In this document: in pieces, positions 329 through 54,033 of the stretch
How the letters are laid out: each line of letters begins with the position of its first letter
Position numbering within the stretch: the stretch's first letter is position 1
Source of the DNA: Staphylococcus phage vB_SepM_BE08
Sequence record: MT596505.1
Direction: 5' to 3' (one strand)
Length of the DNA: 64,000 bases
Translations under genes and position numbers: made by a program
The notes under the pieces: model-generated
Seen by the model: the letters and a program-made list of their open reading frames with translations, nothing else
What the model was told of the DNA's origin: nothing
Database searches by the model: none

Positions 329-1737
329 TTATCTATTTTACTTTGCAATATATCTATTTCTTTTTGGTAATCTCTTATTTCAAATTCATAAGCTTCATAT
401 TCTATCTGATTTAATTTTTTTAATTTATTTATATACTCTCTTACAACTTTTTTATTTAATTTAGATTCTATAGATATTTCTTTTAAAGTTAAATTTTTTT
501 CATATAATTTTTTAACTAATAAAATATTATCTGTATCATAGAAAGAGTTTTTGAAAACATTAAACCAATTAACATCAGTATTATATAAAGAAGAGTTTTT
601 AATACTATTTTTAATGTATTCAAAGTCAGAAAGCTCAGCATTTATCTCTACATATTTAATACTATTATTAAGAACCGCGTCTTTTTTCTCTTTATCTACT
701 CTTTGTTGTTCCTCTAAAGTTAGTTTAAATCTAGCACCTTCTCTTAACTCTTTATAATGTTGAGCACCATGAACTTCTATTACACAATCTAAATTTGGTA
801 AATAGAAATCATACCTTCTTCTTTTTAAGAAATCAAAAGTCTTTTCTTGTATATAAGAAATACCTAACTCATCTAAGTAAGCTTTAACGACTTTTTCTGG
901 ATAACTTCTTTTTATATTAAATTTACTTTTGTTTTCTTTATTTTTACTTTTTAATTCCGCACAATAACCACAATTTTTTTGTACTCCATTTAAAAAATGG
1001 TCTACTCTAACCTTCTTAACTGTACCGCAAGTTAAACACTTAACTTTAAACATATTTCTTGTATTTATAGTACCATCCTTATTTATAAACTCTTCATTAA
1101 AATAATCAACTATCTCATAGTTATTATTTACTTCACCTATTAAATTTTTATTAGCATCAGAGTTCTTGTTAGCTAAATAAGATATATTACAAGTAAAGAA
1201 ATTATACTCATTATATAACCTATTTTTATTATCATGTTCTAATCTTATATAACCAATTTCTTTACCCTTATTATTATATTTAGTAAAATAGTCTAAGATA
1301 GTGACGTAACCCTTATAGTTATTAAATTCAAAGTAAACATCACAACCAATACTATTTTTTAAATCTACTTTACCATTATTTTTTAGCGGTAAGCTTTCAT
1401 AATACATCTTTCTTTTAGCTGATTCTTTACTGTGTCCTAATTTATCACCTACTATACTTTTAAGTGATACATTTAAAAAACTTTCTTTATTTATAACATA
1501 ATATTTATTATCATACTTTAATTTTAAACGAGCTTTTTTATTATCTTTAGTACTAGGTAAATATTCTTCTATTACTATATAACCTTTAACACCTATATAC
1601 TCAAAAGGAACTTCTGTATTATTACATTTTTTAAAATCATATACTTCTTTTCCAGATGGTTGTATTTTAGTAGGTACATTATTTAAGTCTATGTAACAAG
1701 GTTTATTATTTTTATATACTTTAATTATTTTATCCAT
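310..1737 (-). CDS. multi-domain endonuclease-like protein: beta-rich repeats, Cys4 zinc ribbon (CLTCG...CGYC), Vsr/PD-(D/E)XK-like motif (YDFYLP...IEVHGAQH), C-terminal HTH
   Basis: 475-aa ORF; SD AAGGAG 10 nt upstream of ATG at 1737; motif inspection. Confidence 0.55.
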   Translation of the reverse strand: MDKIIKVYKNNKPCYIDLNNVPTKIQPSGKEVYDFKKCNNTEVPFEYIGVKGYIVIEEYLPSTKDNKKARLKLKYDNKYYVINKESFLNVSLKSIVGDKLGHSKESAKRKMYYESLPLKNNGKVDLKNSIGCDVYFEFNNYKGYVTILDYFTKYNNKGKEIGYIRLEHDNKNRLYNEYNFFTCNISYLANKNSDANKNLIGEVNNNYEIVDYFNEEFINKDGTINTRNMFKVKCLTCGTVKKVRVDHFLNGVQKNCGYCAELKSKNKENKSKFNIKRSYPEKVVKAYLDELGISYIQEKTFDFLKRRRYDFYLPNLDCVIEVHGAQHYKELREGARFKLTLEEQQRVDKEKKDAVLNNSIKYVEINAELSDFEYIKNSIKNSSLYNTDVNWFNVFKNSFYDTDNILLVKKLYEKNLTLKEISIESKLNKKVVREYINKLKKLNQIEYEAYEFEIRDYQKEIDILQSKIDNLKSKR

Positions 1738-2045
1738 TTAATATTTCTCCTTATTATTTTTTATCCTAGGTATAGTATAATATAACAAAAATTAACGGGG
1801 AAGGGTATGAGTACATAAGAAAGTTATTTATTATTTTTTTTGTTGACTTTTGTAGATTATAGTTTATTTTTAAGGTGGTTTATAGGGAACCTGAGGTAGG
1901 TATACTAGGGTATTATTACACCCCTTGTTTATGGCAATTTATAACGGGGCGTATATATAAAAAAATTATACAATATCATAGATATATTAATTCACTCTTT
2001 AACTATTCCTTTTTATATTTATTTATAAAAATTTTTTTATTTTAT

Positions 2046-7607: not shown

Positions 7608-7916
7608 TTAAATTATTTCATCAAAAACAATTTCCCCGTTATCAATAACGATAACGCCACCTTGTACAATAAAGAAAGTTAACCCTTTATATTCCCGTGC
7701 TATTCCGTAATCATAAGGCGTTTTACCAAATAGCTTATTTCTTTTATAAAAAGTAATATCTTCACTATATAAGCCACTAGGTACATGTACAGTCAATTCT
7801 GGATGCCAACCTGTACCCCCTAAATCGTTTCGGTATAAGTTTTTGGACTTATAACCATCATAACCAAATGTTTCCATTATATTATTTGCAATTAATTCTA
7901 TATTATTTTTATACAA
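7608..7916 (-). CDS. hypothetical protein; start re-assigned to TTG 10 nt after AAAGGA (track start has 1-nt SD spacing)
   Basis: leader AAAGGAATTGATAATA-TTG matches family leader; aggggtt...aacccct hairpin after stop. Confidence 0.45.
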   Translation of the reverse strand: MYKNNIELIANNIMETFGYDGYKSKNLYRNDLGGTGWHPELTVHVPSGLYSEDITFYKRNKLFGKTPYDYGIAREYKGLTFFIVQGGVIVIDNGEIVFDEII

Positions 7917-8755: not shown

Positions 8756-8956
8756 ATGACACATATTAAAGTAGATAAAAGAAAATCATTAAATAAAAAT
8801 ATAAAAGAAAATGGATTAAAAAAAGAATTAAATAAAAATAGTGGAAAAATAAAAATAAAAGAAAGTTTATTAAGAAAAGCAAAAAGAAATAATGATATAG
8901 AAAAAATTAATAAACTAGAAAATGAATTAAAAAAATTATATAATCAATTAGACTAG
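8756..8956 (+). CDS. small lysine-rich basic protein (66 aa)
   Basis: SD AAAGGAATG; terminator hairpin ctagggaaaaccctag over stop. Confidence 0.55.
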   Translation: MTHIKVDKRKSLNKNIKENGLKKELNKNSGKIKIKESLLRKAKRNNDIEKINKLENELKKLYNQLD

Positions 8957-8976
8957 GGAAAACCCTAGTCTTTTTA
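8953..8976 (+). terminator. rho-independent terminator ctaggg-aaaa-ccctag + TTTTT
   Basis: palindrome plus T-run. Confidence 0.65.
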
Positions 8977-8996
8977 TGTTCTATATCTTATATCTT

Positions 8997-9189
8997 TTTT
9001 AGGGGAAATCCGTACGATACTACTTGCTATTTTTAGGGGAAAATCGACACCAGACTACTTGAAACAACTAGCCTTTTTCATACAATACTACTTACTAATT
9101 ATGTATATTTATAAGAATATTTGAATAAAATTCATGCAATACTACTTACATTATATAGTTAATATATAAACAATACTACTTGAATATAT
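8997..9189. repeat. five degenerate 34-bp tandem units with conserved core CAATACTACTTG (iteron-like array)
   Basis: core starts at 9018, 9052, 9086, 9139, 9173 (spacings 34, 34, 53, 34); first two units also share TTTTAGGGGAAA. Confidence 0.7.
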
Positions 9190-9600
9190 AATAGTATTCA
9201 GGAAGGTAGTGGGTAGATTAACCCCCTAGTATTAAAAAAGATATTAATACTAGAGCTAAATCATATTTCAGTTTAGGCTAGGTCTAGTTTCATTTTTGTT
9301 AATATTTTTACACGCACTCTTATCCACGCAACCTAACTTAATAGGTTAATACTACCCCGTTCATATTGAACCTAAGAGTCCTCCCTGTCCTTTATTGCTT
9401 GGTAGACACCACCAACTATGGTAGAAGGTATAGTGTATCTATACCTACAAAGTATAAGCATTGCATATCTTATACCCGCCCTGTGAGTTTTATGCAGGTG
9501 CTCGTGGCTCACTATCACCACATCATTGTCGCTATTCCTATAGGTTCCTATGCATGACCTATACTCATCAGCTCTTTATCTTATTGTACTTATACTATAC
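9190..9600. ncRNA. GC-elevated (~40%) ORF-free island with multiple hairpins; candidate structured RNA or foreign DNA remnant
   Basis: compositional contrast with ~28% GC surroundings; only junk ORFs (Cys/His/Tyr-rich, no RBS). Confidence 0.2.
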
Positions 9601-9720
9601 CATACTTTTAATATCAGGTCAAGTAAAAAATGATAACTTTTACTTATTACTTATTATAAGTTTATCTTATTGTAAATAAAACCTTTTTGAAATTTTTGAG
9701 TACCCTATTGTAAAAATTTT

Positions 9721-9829
9721 TAAGGGGGTATCATCCTAAATTTTTTAAGGTCTTCATCCTAAAAAAATAAGACCGCTTCATCCTATTTAAGTGAAGCGGT
9801 TTAACCTAAATATACTTCATCTTAAAAAA
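9721..9829 (+). promoter_or_regulatory. four direct repeats of TTCATCCTAAA (plus GAAGCGGT hairpin) immediately upstream of a consensus promoter
   Basis: repeat cores at ~9731, 9754, 9777, 9816. Confidence 0.45.
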
Positions 9830-9832
9830 TTA

Positions 9833-9861
9833 TTGACAATCTAATTATCCTATAGTATAAT
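9833..9861 (+). promoter_or_regulatory. consensus sigma-A promoter TTGACA-N17-TATAAT
   Basis: ttgaca 9833-9838; tataat 9856-9861. Confidence 0.65.
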
Positions 9862-9902
9862 TAACTTAACAAATTAAATTTATTAAGAAAGGAGTTAATA
9901 CA

Positions 9903-9983
9903 TATGATTAACTTTTTAATTGGAGTATTTGTAGGTGGAACATTAGTATTAATCGAGAATGTAATTATGAATAAATATATGTA
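9903..9983 (+). CDS. 26-aa hydrophobic peptide (MINFLIGVFVGGTLVLIENVIMNKYM)
   Basis: strong SD AAAGGAG 9 nt upstream; single predicted TM segment. Confidence 0.4.
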
Positions 9984-9995
9984 GGAGTGATACAA

Positions 9996-10181
9996 ATGTC
10001 TTTAAGTACATTATTTGGAACTATAGGAGTTATTTTATTAGCAATTGTATTTTTAATAGTGACTATTGAAGCTATTATTGAATTAATAAAAGAGAAAATG
10101 TATATACAGTTAGTTATTTTCTTATTATTAGTATTAGGTTTAATATCATTAATATTAGCATCTATATTCAAATATTATTAA
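9996..10181 (+). CDS. 61-aa two-TM membrane protein (start re-assigned to ATG with SD AGGAG)
   Basis: two hydrophobic stretches; track start GTG lacks SD; antisense ORF 9965..10171 rejected. Confidence 0.5.
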   Translation: MSLSTLFGTIGVILLAIVFLIVTIEAIIELIKEKMYIQLVIFLLLVLGLISLILASIFKYY

Positions 10182-47798: not shown

Positions 47799-48895
47799 TT
47801 ACTTGTGTACAATATAATTTATTTATTATATTGTATCTATTGTCATTTAAACAATAGCTATATATCTCTATATAGGACAGACTATATCATATATCATTTC
47901 TGTGGTAGGTTTATTGTTTATTTACTGTTTCTAAATTTATATCCTTTATACTCTACAAAGTCATCTGTTTTTCTTAATTTATCTCTCAATGTCTTATGAT
48001 TATTCATGTTGAGTAGTTTCATCACCTTATTCATACTATACTTAGTATACAATAGATTACCGTCTAAGTCAAATACATCAATTTTCATATTTTTACTTCT
48101 TTTAGACTCTTTATTTACATACTCCCACTTATAACCTTTATGTGATTTATGTCTTCCAGAAATTACTTGACTTATTTTTGATGGGCTAAAATACCCACCA
48201 GTTTCTCTTTGTGCTTGAGTGGGTGAATCCCACACCTTAACAATATTACCTTCCATATCTTTTTGATATACTGCTTTATTAGATACCTTTTTAAGTTGTT
48301 CCCTAGCACTATACGTATTTTGTCTACCTTGTTTAGCAGAGTGTAAGGTATTGCCCCTATAATCTACCCATTCTAGGTTGTTTACGTGGTTATTCAATCT
48401 ATTATTATCGATGTGGTTAACAACATTTAGATTAGGATTATTGTTAGGTATAAAAAGCTTTGCTACTAATCTATGCACTAATATGTTACCCTCAGTAACT
48501 GTAACTTGTTTGTACCCTGAATTAATAATCCATGGTTTTAATTCATGCTTAGTAATTTTATTTATTACTCTACCTGTATTACTTACTTTATATTTATCAT
48601 CATAATCTTTCCAAACTTCTTTCATATACTCTTCCTTACTATTCCCTACCACAGAAATAATATCCTTGCTTTCGTGGGTGTGTATTGGTTGTGCTACCTC
48701 AACACCTAGTCGTTGAGCCTTCCCCATACTTCCATACACTTTCAGGGGCTTGGTTGCGGATTCTCTTTATTCTTAACCTTTTTACTGTACCAAACACATT
48801 ACTGTTTGCCCTTATATATGTTTCCATTATAAGTTAGTAGTTAAGACCTAACAAGTTTCTCCCCGCAGTTAACAAAGTTTTACAACCCCAATTTA
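47799..48895 (-). other. group I-type intron interrupting DNA polymerase between ...TGRLASSNP and NLQNI...
   Basis: exon 1 stops right after SSNP, exon 2 resumes with NLQNI; GC-rich structured segments 48740-48895; encodes HNH endonuclease. Confidence 0.65.
47918..48739 (-). CDS. HNH homing endonuclease (VNHIDNNRLNNHVNNLEW; repeated NUMOD-like basic modules)
   Basis: HNH motif by inspection, intron-encoded. Confidence 0.7.
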   Translation of the reverse strand: MYGSMGKAQRLGVEVAQPIHTHESKDIISVVGNSKEEYMKEVWKDYDDKYKVSNTGRVINKITKHELKPWIINSGYKQVTVTEGNILVHRLVAKLFIPNNNPNLNVVNHIDNNRLNNHVNNLEWVDYRGNTLHSAKQGRQNTYSAREQLKKVSNKAVYQKDMEGNIVKVWDSPTQAQRETGGYFSPSKISQVISGRHKSHKGYKWEYVNKESKRSKNMKIDVFDLDGNLLYTKYSMNKVMKLLNMNNHKTLRDKLRKTDDFVEYKGYKFRNSK

Positions 48896-51124
48896 AGGGT
48901 TACTACTGGCTAATCTTCCTGTACTTGTAGTTGTTGATGAGAAACTACCATGTAGTGTTTGTGTGTTTTTATTAACCATTCTAGGAAGCTTATGAGTAAA
49001 TGAGTTTCGTTTTGTTCGTATAGAGGCGTAGTATAATAAGTCTTCTATTAGTTCTTTGTTATCTTCTGTTACTTCTAAATCAGATAATATATATCCTAGA
49101 GCTTTAGTATCTGTTTTATAGTCTTCCCAACTAATATCTTGCTCTTTCTTTTTCTCAAAAGAGGTAGCTTTAACGTAGTTCTGGTCATAAGGTAATTCAA
49201 AACCTAATATTTTATACAATAGTTCACTTTTATGGTCTCCTGACCCTATATTAAATTTCCACCCATCATCTTTATACTTATTTCTGTACTTCTCTATTTC
49301 TGGGTCTCTTTCTTTTTTAGGTTTACTAAACTCTTCTAAACCTAGTTCATATAAGTTATATTTTTCTTCTTCAAATTCTTTTACCGCCCAATGTTCTCTT
49401 ATTTTATTTTCAATTTTAGTTAATTCTAATTCATAGGCTTTGTCATTCTTTTCCATGTAATCTAAATCAGCATATAGACCATTACTCTCTATTCTTGCTA
49501 GGGTTCTATCTAACCTTGGATAATCTTGTTGCCATAACTTTATTGCTTTAGGTCGTTGTTGGTCTTTTAATTTTTCTAGTATATTAGAATAAATTCTACG
49601 ACATACATCAACGTCACCACTAGCATAAGGGTGCATTAGTTCTAAAGGAATCCAATCATAATTAAACTTACCACCATCAACTTCATTATATACATCTGTA
49701 TGTTTTTTAAACCTATTAATTAATTCTAAAGCTGTTTTAAGTGTATATTCTTTACCTTCATCACTTAAAGACATATACTCATCCGAAAGCTTAGCTACCT
49801 CTTCAAACTCTGAATCACCCATTAACATTGTTTTTGTTAATCGTTCTGGGTGTAAACCTAATTGAATATATTGCTTATCAGTACTATTCATTTCTGTTTT
49901 TTGCTCATATTTATCAAGCTCTACTTCTTTATCCACACTAATGTTTTCAGATAACCAATTTTTATATTCTGTTGCTTTAATATTATGTTCTTTTTTTGCA
50001 ATACTCTTATTATCTTTAATAATAGTAGACATTTTTTCTGACAAGAATTTAAGTAATTTTCTACTAAACCATTTTTTAAATTCTTCTAACGGTGTGTCAT
50101 ACCCACCCATATCTGTAACCTCATATGCTAAGTCAGACAGGCGTTTAGAATCTGTGGTTTCTTGTGTTACAGCTAAATACCAGCCTACAAGTGTGTCTTG
50201 ATTATTTTCAAATGTGTTAAATCCTAGTGTACTCATTAGGAATTTTATATCATATTTAATATTATGACCTACTTTTATATCCTCTTTATCAGCTAACCAT
50301 TCTCTTAAGTAACTTAGTATCTCATCAATATCTTTTTGTCCGTTTTTCCAATTAAAATCAGATTTATAAATAGGTATTGTGACACCTTGTCCGTTTTTCC
50401 AACTTAAAGATACTACTAAAACTTTACTTCCTGCTCTATCTGGTTTTAGTGAATTAGTCTCTGTATCCCAAGCTGTTATATCTATACCATCATTATTATC
50501 TTTTTTTACTTCTTTAGTAAAAATCTCTCTTACTCTTTCAATATCTGTTACAAGTTCATATGACACTTTTTTAGGTTTAAAGGCTTCTTCTCCATTTTTT
50601 ACAAATTTACCTAATAAATTAAGGTCTGTAACTACATGACGTTCAGCATTTTTATTAACATTAGTGTATTCAATACTATAAGTAGGTAATACCCAAACAC
50701 CTTTACTTGTATTTTCAGTACTTAATGTTATTTTGTGAGGTACACCTCTTACTGAACCTAATTTTGTAACGTTTAGTAAAAATTTAATACCTAGTTTACC
50801 TAAAGGAACAATAATATCATAATTATTATCAATAATTCGTTTAGTTAATTCTGAGTAATAAGGTTTAACTTCTGTTTGCTTTACATCTTGGTATTTAACA
50901 ATCTTACCGTAATTATTTGTTACAGGTGTTGGTATAGCCTTATACACAAAATCAATATCATAATCTTTTCTAGAATTATCTCTTACTAAACCTGAACATC
51001 TCTCTAATAACATTTTTAAAGTTTTACCATTTTGAGTATTAAAAAGATTTAATCTTGTTTTATTATCATCTGTAACTTTAAAATGTTCTTCTCTTATGTG
51101 GTCGTATAAAATTAAAGCTTTCAT
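48896..51124 (-). CDS. DNA polymerase (family A) exon 1: 3'-5' exonuclease (AWDTETN, VGHNIKYD, YASGDVD) and N-terminal pol domain; start re-assigned to MKALILYD with SD AAGGAG
   Basis: Exo I-III motifs; ends TGRLASSNP. Confidence 0.8.
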
Positions 51125-52627: not shown

Positions 52628-54033
52628 ATTTATTCTTCATCCGTTGTCAAAAACTTATAAAACTTTATAAATCTTATTCCTTTTTCAATGTACCCTCTTT
52701 TGAGTATTTCATATACATAGATTACTTCTTATTACTCTACTTGAGTTTGTATGATACTCCAAAGGCTTAAATTCCCGTACAACGAACGGTACATATATTT
52801 AGTATCTTGTTTTTGATATTCTAAATATTGTAGTTAGCTAAATTAATACTTGCATTGAGGTCTCTATCAAGACTAAAACCACATTCACAGTTAAATATTC
52901 TATCTGATAGTTTTAGGTTTTGATTAATAGTTCCACAGTTAGAACAAGTTTTACTAGAAGGATAAAATCTGTCTGCTAGTATAACTTCAATACCCTTTCT
53001 TTTACACTTATACTCTAACTGTCTTCTAAACTCGTAGAAACCTTGTTTTTGTATTGCTTTAGCTAAATGCCTATTCTTCATCATACCACTTACATTTAAA
53101 TCTTCTATAACAATTCTTCTAGGTTTGGTTTTCACGATAGAAGTTGTTGTTTGATGTAAATGGTTTTTACGAATGTTAGACAATCTTCGTTGTAGGAGTT
53201 TAATTTGTTTTTCAAGTTTTATAATATTGCAAGTTTTGACAAACTTTCCTCCTTCTTTATTTTTTTGATATTTACGAGATACCTTACGTTGCAATCTACG
53301 TAATCGTTTTTCTAGTTTTTTAACTTTTACTGTTTTATTTATGTTTCCATAAATAGTTCCATCAGAACATATTACTAATTCTTTTATTCCTAAATCAATA
53401 CCTAGTGATTCATCAGTTAGTTCTTCGTAGATGTTTTCTTCTTCAATAGAAACACTTATATACCAATATTTACCATCAAAAGTAATTCTAGGATTATAAT
53501 ACTTAGTATTCGTTGGTAGTTGTTCTGATGTTTTAACCCAACCTATTCTTTGTAACAATACTAAATTTTCTTTTACTCTTAATCTATGTGTATCATTATA
53601 AAAACTAGGTTTTGTTTTCTTCTTATATTTAAACTTAGGAAATTTAGCTTGTCCTTTAAAGAAACGCTTATAAGAAATACAAGCATCTTTAACTGCTTGT
53701 TTAGGAATATTGTTACTAACTTCTTTTAGCCATTTATACTCTTCTGTTTTCTTTAACTGAGTAATTTCTTTACGTAAAACAGAATCTTGTATAAACTTTT
53801 TTCCTTGTTTATAATTTTCTTGTTGTTTTGCTAAAGTCCAGTTGTATATAAATCTTGCTGTTCCTGCTGATTTATATAATTGTAGCTCTTGTTGTTTAGT
53901 AGGTCTAAGCCTAACTTTTTTAGTTATCATTATTTAGCCCACCTTAAGATATGTTATCACCTCTACAAGTATTATAACATATCTTAGGTAAAAATGCAAC
54001 TTAATTTATAAAAAAGTTATAAATTTATATTAA
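52628..54033 (-). mobile_element. IS200/IS605-family (IS1341-type) element carrying tnpB only; left-end-like 13-bp inverted-repeat hairpin at 53944-53987; long 3' noncoding tail
   Basis: unusually long flanking gaps (193 and 103 nt) around tnpB; subterminal hairpin; boundaries not determinable. Confidence 0.4.
52821..53930 (-). CDS. tnpB: TnpB (OrfB) RuvC-like RNA-guided nuclease: RuvC-I IDLGIKE, RuvC-II IVIEDLN, Zn finger CSNCG...CECG, RuvC-III DRDLNASINLA
   Basis: all catalytic motifs intact; N-terminal LRPTKQQELQL motif. Confidence 0.8.
   Translation of the reverse strand: MITKKVRLRPTKQQELQLYKSAGTARFIYNWTLAKQQENYKQGKKFIQDSVLRKEITQLKKTEEYKWLKEVSNNIPKQAVKDACISYKRFFKGQAKFPKFKYKKKTKPSFYNDTHRLRVKENLVLLQRIGWVKTSEQLPTNTKYYNPRITFDGKYWYISVSIEEENIYEELTDESLGIDLGIKELVICSDGTIYGNINKTVKVKKLEKRLRRLQRKVSRKYQKNKEGGKFVKTCNIIKLEKQIKLLQRRLSNIRKNHLHQTTTSIVKTKPRRIVIEDLNVSGMMKNRHLAKAIQKQGFYEFRRQLEYKCKRKGIEVILADRFYPSSKTCSNCGTINQNLKLSDRIFNCECGFSLDRDLNASINLANYNI

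Follow-up and report, generated by a model that had tools for sequence, protein, structure and literature searches.

The locus and its transcription signals

The window analyzed here, a stretch of 64,000 nucleotides (nt) from Staphylococcus phage vB_SepM_BE08 (sequence record MT596505.1), contains a GC-rich island at 9190-9600, which probably represents a transcribed, stand-alone structured RNA gene of about 380 nt on the minus strand (9211-9622), belonging to a family carried by mobile elements. By its sequence, the window is that of a Staphylococcus epidermidis myophage of the genus Sepunavirus. In a blastn search of positions 9150-9650 against a phage collection, vB_SepM_BE25 was 100% identical over all 501 bases, the phages BE05, Twillingate, Terranova, phiIPLA-C1C, 80A/80B, and 110 matched at 98.6-99.6% identity, and the annotated matches all belong to Sepunavirus (Twortvirinae, Herelleviridae). 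In Twillingate, the region is found 4.3-4.8 kilobases (kb) from the left end, amid small genes noted as 'Tre protein', 'TreN', and 'TreO from phage K', and it is these neighbors that place the RNA gene in the terminal-repeat region.

The sequence-only reading of the window had described an island of raised GC content, free of open reading frames (ORFs), as either a candidate structured RNA or captured foreign DNA. The island is real, with a GC content of 0.370 over 9190-9600 versus 0.268 for the whole window, and only 0.48% of the 411-nt windows are as GC-rich. The peak of 0.435 over 200 nt (within 9276-9628) equals the highest value found anywhere in the 64 kb, and this is the only stretch with a GC content of at least 0.37 that overlaps no ORF of at least 80 amino acids. 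The raised GC content has the look of a structured RNA in an AT-rich genome, and need not signal a recent import. The limits of 9190-9600 hold for the island, although the unit extends slightly beyond them, with a promoter that reaches 9622, and the structure, which had been noticed on the plus strand, is borne out, but on the minus strand, which is the functional one. The transcription unit and its immediate surroundings contain the following features:

9761-9800, minus strand: terminator of the upstream minus-strand operon, read from the sequence (stem 9772-9780 / 9792-9800, then a T-run)
9594-9622, minus strand: sigma-70-type promoter of the RNA, TTGACC, 17 nt, TG-g-TATAGT, with an extended -10 (10 of 12 hexamer matches plus the TG)
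9211-9579, minus strand: conserved body of the non-coding RNA (ncRNA), from AUAAAGAGCUGAUGAG to CUACCC (motif mapping, alignments A1 and A2, covariation)
8972-9210, minus strand: G-poor tail, from the conserved 3' end as far as the following terminator (7% G versus 22% in the body)
8950-8971, both strands: bidirectional terminator-like hairpin, AGACTAGGG...CCCTAGTCT (terminator scan)
9366-9557, plus strand: short ORF across the island
9461-9679, plus strand: short ORF across the island
9372-9521, minus strand: short ORF across the island

The promoter is maintained in all six of the staphylococcal lineages that can be aligned, with its -35 (TTGACn or TTTACA), its spacing, and the TGnTATAnT box, and it sits 181-197 nt upstream of the family core in each of them, so placed that transcription would start near 9587 in the window. 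The terminator-like hairpin at 9761-9800, which was read by eye and escaped the terminator scan because of its 11-nt loop, ends the preceding operon, and the RNA gene thus appears to rely on its own promoter. At the other end, a minus-strand transcript would meet its first possible intrinsic stop in the hairpin at 8950-8971, which closes the converging plus-strand ORF at 8756-8956 as well, and carries a terminator annotation in Twillingate and SEP1. The tail that precedes it contains 5-6 copies of AAGUAGUAUUG (plus strand AATACTACTT, 9016-9182), and may be part of the primary transcript, to be removed by trimming after transcription. The minus strand folds below its shuffled versions with z = -3.6, and the plus strand with z = -2.0.

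The direct repeats of the tail region (8995-9182) have the form AATACTACTT(G/A), and two 32-nt repeats (8995-9026 and 9030-9061) end in the same motif. These repeats are specific to Sepunavirus and are mostly missing from SEP1, and they are possible protein-binding sites, iterons, or an RNA tail. Upstream of the gene, at 9731-9861, CTTCATCCTA occurs 3-4 times, in overlap with nested hairpins that include the minus-strand terminator at 9761-9800, and a perfect plus-strand promoter (TTGACA-17-TATAAT) at 9833-9861 faces small ORFs, including a hydrophobic ORF of 64 amino acids at 9987-10181.

The plus-strand ORFs had been regarded as junk-like, and this view is upheld by the homologues, in which stops and frameshifts interrupt them. 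In CF5, the PG-2021 phages, and Baoshanvirus, the equivalents of the three short ORFs contain 1-5 in-frame stops, and their differences in length are not multiples of three. The records MH321491 (Twillingate_011) and OQ355703 (BE25) have a 'putative membrane protein' or 'hypothetical proteins' annotated over the RNA gene; the ORFs are unconserved, and are probably mis-annotations, and an ncRNA feature should replace these spurious 'hypothetical' or 'membrane' proteins, which are present in several phage records.

Fold and distribution of the RNA

Homologous GC-rich, unannotated islands are found in CF5 (80% identity) and in the PG-2021 phages (about 74%), which are unclassified and were isolated mainly on S. 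xylosus. Further homologues are present in the Baoshanvirus phages BS1/BS2, Golestan101-M, JDF86, PSU4, and RSM-J51Sa, and in several IMG/VR and metagenome contigs. A length of approximately 370-380 nt is conserved over at least three genera of the Twortvirinae (Sepunavirus, Baoshanvirus, and that of CF5, which is filed under Silviavirus), as well as in PG-2021. In Baoshanvirus, the element lies inside an interval of about 1 kb in which no genes are annotated. The fold that can be read from these copies, given in the coordinates of the window and from the 5' to the 3' end of the RNA, is composed of the following parts:

9531-9576, minus strand: 5' domain (P1 5' strand 9576-9573; P2 9572-9569 / 9534-9531; P3 hairpin 9563-9557 / 9545-9539)
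9478-9521, minus strand: P4 hairpin (9521-9517 / 9508-9504) and P5 (9501-9496 / 9482-9478)
9512-9508 with 9487-9483, minus strand: probable second pseudoknot, GUGAG with CUCAC (lineage-by-lineage reading by eye)
9427-9475, minus strand: P6 (9475-9471 / 9456-9452) and P7 hairpin (9427-9445)
9347-9419, minus strand: family core with P8 hairpin (9415-9411 / 9403-9399)
9408-9404 with 9390-9386, minus strand: PK-B, H-type pseudoknot, in which the P8 loop UGUCU pairs with GGACA
3' part of the core, minus strand: GGGAGG, P1 3' strand 9377-9374, P9 hairpin 9371-9368 / 9362-9359, GGGGUAG
9211-9262, minus strand: 3' domain (outer helix 9262-9257 with 9221-9216; terminal hairpin 9253-9244 / 9235-9226; UAGGGGGUUAAUCUACCC 9228-9211)

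The principal evidence for this fold comes from A2, an alignment (MAFFT) of 13 staphylococcal-phage copies, in which invariant blocks lie between hairpins whose sequences differ by lineage yet stay complementary, whole hairpins are inserted or replaced, and the insertions and deletions follow the helices, not codons. Over eight helices, one of them a pseudoknot (40 pairs), 97.6% of the positions are paired, versus 87.2% in column shuffles, none of which reached the observed value in 500 trials, and 13 of the 40 scored pairs show changes on both sides; RNAalifold was also run. When the partner strand was slid by 1-3 columns as a control, pairing stood at about 40%, with 0-2 compensatory pairs. 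Helices P2, P3, and P4 are all 100% paired in A2, with two, five (of seven), and three compensatory pairs, respectively, and the figure for P5 is 91%. The G-U pairs that are invariant in P2, P4, and the pseudoknot tie the fold to the minus strand.

Both of the hairpins singled out by the sequence-only reading are present, and both show compensatory changes in related phages. The first, ctagtattaa/ttaatactag, is the terminal hairpin of the 3' domain (9226-9253), an arrangement that recurs with different helix sequences in CF5, BS1, the plasmids, and the metagenomic phage contig L031. The second, ggtatag/ctatacc, is P7 (9427-9445), in which GGUAUAG/CUAUACC becomes GUAAUAG/CUAUUAC in a CF5-like contig, and the JDF86 group has a single, different hairpin in place of P6 and P7. 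The second pseudoknot takes the forms GUGAG/CUCAC, GAGAG/UUCUC, and UCGGA/UUCGA in different lineages, and is unscored in A2, where MAFFT misaligns its columns. Like P7, P9, and the 3' domain, it is also supported by the comparison of lineages, and the RNA would carry at least one, and probably two, pseudoknots. Three long-range pairings are suggestive: GGGGUAG could pair with CUACCC, GAC could close the 5' domain by pairing with GUC/GUU, and GGGnGG could pair with an upstream pyrimidine run.

The element is present in some Sepunavirus phages (BE25, Twillingate, and phiIPLA-C1C), and is lacking in Quidividi and BE04, in which only the left flank matches. The phage SEP1 retains both flanks, and the RNA slot is filled by an ORF of 192 amino acids, SEP1_141, which has its own sigma-70 promoter and no Pfam match (1184-1762, minus strand, of the phiIBB-SEP1 stretch L007). 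This natural swap of an RNA cassette for a protein cassette shows that the RNA is accessory in Sepunavirus.

A wider family was sought by scanning metagenomes and IMG/VR with the core pattern, followed by blastn searches of the recovered copies against PLSDB. The scan recovered more staphylococcal phage contigs, together with non-staphylococcal contigs of 32-40% GC, which share features beyond the search motif: a hairpin after the core, an upstream hairpin-AAUAnnGAC, and a terminal hairpin-UAGGG...CUAyCC some 175-225 nt downstream of the core. A C/A-rich, G-poor tail ends all of these copies except L020, in which the 3' motif was not found. Four features define the family, that is, the hairpin-AAUAnnGAC (in the window, the family-wide junction motif GGAAUAGCGAC after P3, with the hairpin-AAUAnnGAC form present in the plasmid copies too), a core in which the GGUGGUGnCnACC...AAGGnnAGGGnGG pseudoknot precedes a hairpin, the long terminal hairpin-UAGGG...CUAyCC at about 135-225 nt from that core, and the G-poor tail. 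The window element has a core of this type, in which a GGU...ACC hairpin, the loop of which pairs with a downstream AAGGnnA, is followed by GGGnGG and a hairpin, and it also has the upstream hairpin-AAUAnnGAC, the downstream hairpin-UAGGG...CUAyCC, and the G-poor tail.

The carriers in PLSDB, plasmids of Lactobacillales and Bacillales, include those of Enterococcus faecalis, E. faecium, E. hirae, E. mundtii, and E. lactis, as well as Vagococcus, Carnobacterium, Virgibacillus, Paucilactobacillus, Jeotgalibaca, and Aerococcus. The Pediococcus carrier is a phage-like 'plasmid' that encodes a terminase, portal, and capsid, and contig L031 encodes an integrase, a terminase, an SPP1-type portal, and an SU10-type capsid. 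Scanning of genome contigs with the core pattern returned no matches, the pattern being too strict for cores of the E. hirae type, which differ from it, and blastn searches of the metagenome and Pediococcus copies against the phage collection also gave no match. The census of the family is incomplete, as the scans of the collections need exact patterns and the PLSDB gene tables are partial.

The plasmid cores diverge from the search pattern (that of E. hirae, for example, is GGUGGUGGCGACC...CGGCUAGGGUGG), which permits independent tests of the model. A covariance model, R1, was built from eight PLSDB copies only (67 positions, pseudoknot plus P9). When R1 was run on both strands of the window, 9347-9419 on the minus strand was the sole significant match (25.2 bits, E = 4.4e-4), with the next at 12 bits, and R1 detects every staphylococcal copy at E values of 5e-6 to 4e-3. 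In an alignment of 22 members, PK-B and P9 are 97.1% paired, versus 72% in shuffles and 30-45% in slid controls, a count that leans towards the structure because the alignment was fitted to R1. Eight of the ten pairs are compensatory, and one pseudoknot position occurs as GC, CG, AU, UA, and GU. A plasmid-only profile hidden Markov model placed the correct site at the top of the window with E = 0.16, and significance needed the covariance model. For the 3' domain, a plasmid-only model (R2) ranked 9208-9261 on the minus strand fourth in the window (12 bits, E = 1.2), a match that is weak alone and supportive only through its position and strand relative to that of the core, and this domain would be a family feature mainly on account of the order and spacing of its motifs.

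In four plasmid lineages, TGCTATnnT is found 143-166 nt upstream of the core. In E. hirae (L032 6000-6028), L029 (approximately 7615-7665, minus strand), and L023, a -10-like box (e.g., TGCTATAAT) just upstream of the RNA lies within an inverted repeat, the arms of which covary among these copies. Its possible roles are those of an operator, of a hairpin at the 5' end of the RNA, and of a promoter in single-stranded DNA.

Judged by this comparative evidence, the element is a promoter-equipped, non-coding, strand-specific, and pseudoknotted one, under purifying selection for structure. The proposal of a candidate structured RNA is thus sustained by the conserved promoter, the conservation across genera, the covariation (pseudoknots included), and the lack of conserved coding potential. 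The alternative proposal of captured foreign DNA holds in part, though in another sense, in that the RNA forms a swappable cassette of a family common to plasmids and unrelated phages, but a recent import is not required by the GC content.

Gene neighborhoods and possible roles

A parA operon accompanies the RNA in seven of the ten plasmid records inspected, and in two metagenome contigs. In all nine of these loci, the element lies in some 1-1.2 kb of ORF-free DNA, divergent from the parA operon, and a gene of the DUF5388 family accompanies parA in most of them. Iteron-like arrays lie between the RNA and parA in the four copies that were read (L029, E. hirae, pKUB3007-4, and P. nenjiangensis). 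Most carriers, although not all, lack a replicon that can be typed by MOB-suite: pKUB3007-4 has a RepB initiator 10 kb from the RNA, pTG9790 encodes a Rep_trans/MOBT rolling-circle-type protein, and plasmid II of P. oligofermentans has two typed replicons. Among the small plasmids, pWNCR9 of Carnobacterium inhibens (9.6 kb, L044; 1275-2537) is R1-positive and has no ORF with a Rep domain, and in p35B2_p1 of Vagococcus (L041) there is no more than a Rep_3 fragment, between ORFs that weakly match helix-turn-helix domains of the transposase type; their R1 scores are 61 and 67 bits, respectively. Most typed carriers in PLSDB are mobilizable or conjugative, and 13 of the 21 matches in the search seeded with Virgibacillus are non-mobilizable. 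In L031, the RNA adjoins the integrase gene, and in the Pediococcus element, an ORF with only a weak repressor-like match.

The E. faecalis plasmid pKUB3007-4 and other plasmids of the identical length of 36,331 bp (L035/L043) carry optrA and fexA, which are oxazolidinone-phenicol resistance genes, and in this type, the RNA lies between parA-DUF5388 and a truncated ORF for a D12-type adenine methyltransferase.

In the plasmids, an ORF on the same strand follows the RNA after 100-500 nt, although the proteins encoded there are mutually unrelated, and the idea of a conserved protein partner downstream was rejected. The stretch of the window from the RNA to the 8950-8971 terminator contains no minus-strand ORF of at least 40 amino acids. 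The unrelated plasmid proteins and the lack of a phage ORF before the terminator indicate that the RNA stands alone, rather than being a cis-regulatory leader.

The most economical reading is that of a stand-alone structured RNA gene. Under this reading, the host RNA polymerase would transcribe the RNA early, a timing suggested by its location in the 'Tre' region, and transcripts of the terminal-repeat region appear first in phage K (PMC9241854). Transcription would enter the G-poor tail and end either at the 8950-8971 hairpin or through Rho, after which trimming would shorten the 3' end as far as the stable terminal helix. Once folded, the RNA may act in trans, as a scaffold, a decoy, or a self-assembling particle, on a host component conserved across the Bacillota, to the benefit of a mobile element that has newly entered the cell or needs to be maintained there. 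This trans-acting role in establishment is put forward tentatively, as a possibility that falls short of an even chance, and it is favored by the early region of the phage, the parA, integrase, and repressor-like neighbors, the dispensability of the RNA, and the absence of a conserved neighboring protein.

A number of points weigh against this account. The terminator scan found no intrinsic terminator between 9211 and 8971, that is, at the conserved 3' end. We infer the transcription of the element, the ends of its transcript, and its abundance, and no RNA-seq study of a Sepunavirus was found in the literature searched. The full secondary structure is incomplete, with the region from P9 to the 3' domain and several long-range contacts being ambiguous, and there are approximately six independent staphylococcal lineages, so that some of the covariation counts reflect shared ancestry. 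The proposed function in trans is conjectural, and the position by parA and the iterons, together with the small plasmids without a recognizable Rep, fits replication or maintenance at least as well as a decoy.

The main rival is therefore a replication-linked role, in which the RNA, or transcription through it, would prime or license replication at an adjacent origin, or control copy number, with the repeats serving as iterons or an unwinding region. The models for it would be RNA II of ColE1 and the T4 origins that combine a promoter with an unwinding element. Structured or persistent transcripts are used as primers by ColE1 and at oriF/oriG of T4. This explanation, which we consider unlikely, draws on the seven plasmids and two contigs in which the ORF-free DNA by parA takes the usual position of a rep gene, on the four iteron-like arrays, on the lack of a replicon type in most carriers, on pWNCR9 and p35B2_p1 with their missing or fragmentary Rep, and on the AT-rich stretch with 5-6 direct repeats that follows the RNA in the window. 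The RNA is not the sole replicon, however, in pKUB3007-4, pTG9790, or P. oligofermentans plasmid II, given that these have initiators or replicons of their own, and SEP1, a well-studied and viable phage, does without the element, as do Quidividi and BE04. The C/A-rich, G-poor tail is, in addition, the opposite of a stabilizer of RNA-DNA hybrids, the PLSDB gene tables behind the missing replicons are incomplete, and the repeats are specific to Sepunavirus, rather than a feature of the family. A broader proposal, that the RNA is the core of a protein-independent module of establishment or replication common to the plasmids and phages of the Bacillota, is decidedly doubtful. If it were true, the RNA would be the replicon of Rep-less plasmids such as pWNCR9, with RNA-primed or licensed initiation by parA, the virulent staphylococcal phages would have co-opted it for early genome replication or host takeover, and a new class of large functional RNA would have a defined job on mobile elements.

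The action might instead lie in the DNA, as a single-strand origin or initiation site (sso/ssi, or Frpo-like), folded on the displaced or transferred strand, at which the host RNA polymerase would prime the complementary strand. Such an element would also be non-coding, strand-specific, and heavily folded, most typed carriers are mobilizable or conjugative (with the Rep_trans/MOBT protein in pTG9790), the -10-like box lies within a conserved inverted repeat in E. hirae, L029, and L023, and a TAGCGA in a junction resembles the CS-6 hexamer of ssoA. That hexamer is TAGCGT. The likeness is nevertheless a poor one. Other copies have TAAGGA, TAGGGA, or TAGTGA in place of TAGCGA, and the hexamer belongs to a junction, not to a hairpin loop, which on sequence grounds speaks against an origin of the ssoA type, with its conserved CS-6 in a loop and its RSB element. 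A single-stranded element is very improbable, given the canonical double-strand promoter that is kept outside the fold in six staphylococcal phage lineages, the lack of an evident need for an sso in a virulent myophage with its own replisome, and the RNA-like H-type pseudoknots and conserved junctions; the invariant G-U pairs and free exchange of A-U, G-U, and G-C are also typical of RNA, and would be costly in DNA. A catalytic reading, in which the RNA would be a large ribozyme of a new type, acting by cleavage or ligation on itself or on some other substrate, is improbable, even though invariant nucleotides are gathered in junctions and pseudoknots around a compact core of many helices with a wide spread on mobile elements, a hammerhead-like CUGANGAG occurs with its variable N (U, A, or C) correctly placed, and a RAGATH-18 RNA lies in the same window. 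No Rfam ribozyme matches at E values up to 10, the hammerhead core fails, CUGANGAG is absent from the plasmids, and the logic of a cleavage site is not apparent. The same-strand plasmid ORF within 100-500 nt would suit a riboswitch-like or attenuator leader acting in cis on a downstream gene, a reading that is largely refuted by the gene context, and thus extremely improbable: the next genes in the window converge, approximately 380 nt plus a G-poor tail far exceeds known leaders, and no terminator/antiterminator pair was seen. The chance that this is what is left of a decayed protein-coding gene, or inert foreign DNA whose hairpins arose at random, is close to negligible. The short ORFs and the Twillingate and BE25 protein annotations would agree with it, but the ORFs are interrupted in every other lineage, the indels follow helices, the promoter is conserved, and the covariation is far above that of the shuffle and slide controls; the covariation and the interrupted ORFs refute this reading.

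As a stand-alone structured RNA gene, the element links mobile elements that are otherwise dissimilar, that is, virulent myophages used in phage-therapy research, a metagenomic phage, the Pediococcus element, and enterococcal plasmids, among them linezolid-phenicol resistance plasmids with optrA/fexA (the 36.3-kb pKUB3007-4 type). That they have a conserved RNA in common implies that they also share a host target, or a step in the establishment of foreign DNA. The function is directly testable, given the existence of natural presence/absence variants among the phages and of small carrier plasmids.

Comparison with known RNA classes

A search of the whole window against Rfam 15 at the gathering thresholds returned only a RAGATH-18 RNA, and nothing over the island, and a search of 8800-10000 at E values up to 10 gave four matches at the level of chance, none of them over the island. 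The homologous staphylococcal, plasmid, and metagenome loci also had no Rfam match on the element. The classes that had been proposed for it (tmRNA, group I/II intron, 6S, riboswitch) find no match, and ROOL, GOLLD, OLE, raiA, and all the other families of Rfam 15 were rejected on the same grounds, their covariance models giving no match. The earlier failure to find a tRNA is confirmed by ARAGORN, which detects no tRNA or tmRNA gene in the 64 kb. No convincing likeness to a kink-turn, T-box, signal recognition particle Alu domain or domain IV, or RNase P was seen by eye, and none has an Rfam match. The literature searched contains no description of the element, although the search missed most subscription journals, so that an earlier description is possible. 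The RNA family is absent from Rfam 15, and its kind, the large structured RNAs of mobile elements, is already known.

The CUGANGA box of the hammerhead type is found in the staphylococcal phages as CUGAUGAG, CUGAAGAG, and CUGACGAG, with only N varying. A hammerhead at CUGANGAG was nevertheless rejected, as the GAAA box fails (GGAAUAG, or GGGAUAG in L010-L012), a U stands at the A15.1 position, and the motif is missing in the plasmids; the resemblance is a coincidence.

Elsewhere in the window, the sole Rfam match, at 52677-52765 on the minus strand, is to RAGATH-18 (RF03064), with 61 bits versus a gathering threshold of 44.9, a class that owes its name to an association with genes linked to self-cleaving ribozymes. 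A second GC-elevated stretch (48557-48943; peak 0.415) lies partly under long ORFs, at a point where DNA polymerase meets an HNH homing endonuclease in the records of relatives, and looks like an interruption of the intron or intein type, with no match to a group I intron in Rfam.

The non-coding origins of the ssoA/T/U/W and ssi/Frpo types share with the family a strand-specific fold, a plasmid location, and the vicinity of maintenance functions. The window element differs from them in its external promoter, G-U pairs, pseudoknots, and virulent-phage carriers. RNA II of ColE1 is likewise a structured plasmid RNA, of approximately 550 nt beside the origin, with a constitutive promoter and no need of a plasmid Rep, although it has no homology with the family, belongs to Gram-negative theta plasmids, and has a G-rich hybrid segment, in contrast with the G-poor tail found here, and several carriers of the family do encode Rep proteins.

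Within the Twortvirinae, the nearest comparison is with lncRNA1 and lncRNA2, the long non-coding RNAs (lncRNAs) of Kayvirus (lnc001/lnc002 of phage K; vB_SauM-515A1), which are also on the minus strand, in non-coding regions of 0.5-1.1 kb. One of these has its own early sigma-70 promoter, and they account for 2% and 8-9% of all reads (PMC9241854, PMC7698491). The promoter of the window RNA is present and conserved. The Kayvirus lncRNAs flank tRNA genes, unlike the window RNA, and blastn finds no Kayvirus copy of the latter. Homology with them (phage K 13595-14229 and 37679-38832) was rejected, as nhmmer matches only the promoters, at E values of at least 0.013. The corresponding regions of phage K (L018, L019; 12800-15000 and 36800-39600) contain no Rfam family other than the neighboring tRNAs, and are also candidates for unclassified structured RNAs.

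Few large and intricately folded bacterial RNAs are known (ROOL, GOLLD, OLE, raiA), and each has drawn structural and functional work; PMC10383478 also forms part of the literature on such analogues in kind. The RNA described here resembles ROOL and GOLLD, which are found mainly on phages and prophages, in its length of several hundred nt and in its intricate, pseudoknotted fold. It differs from them in giving no match to their models, in being shorter (approximately 370-450 nt), in not lying by tRNA genes, none of which are present in the 64-kb window, and in its link with parA in the plasmids. The megaplasmid of Lactobacillus salivarius encodes an lncRNA that we take to be a member of ROOL. 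This lncRNA is very abundant, and its deletion lowered the copy number of the megaplasmid (PMC5643018). Both ROOL and GOLLD form RNA-only multimeric assemblies, as seen by cryo-electron microscopy (PMC12286853).

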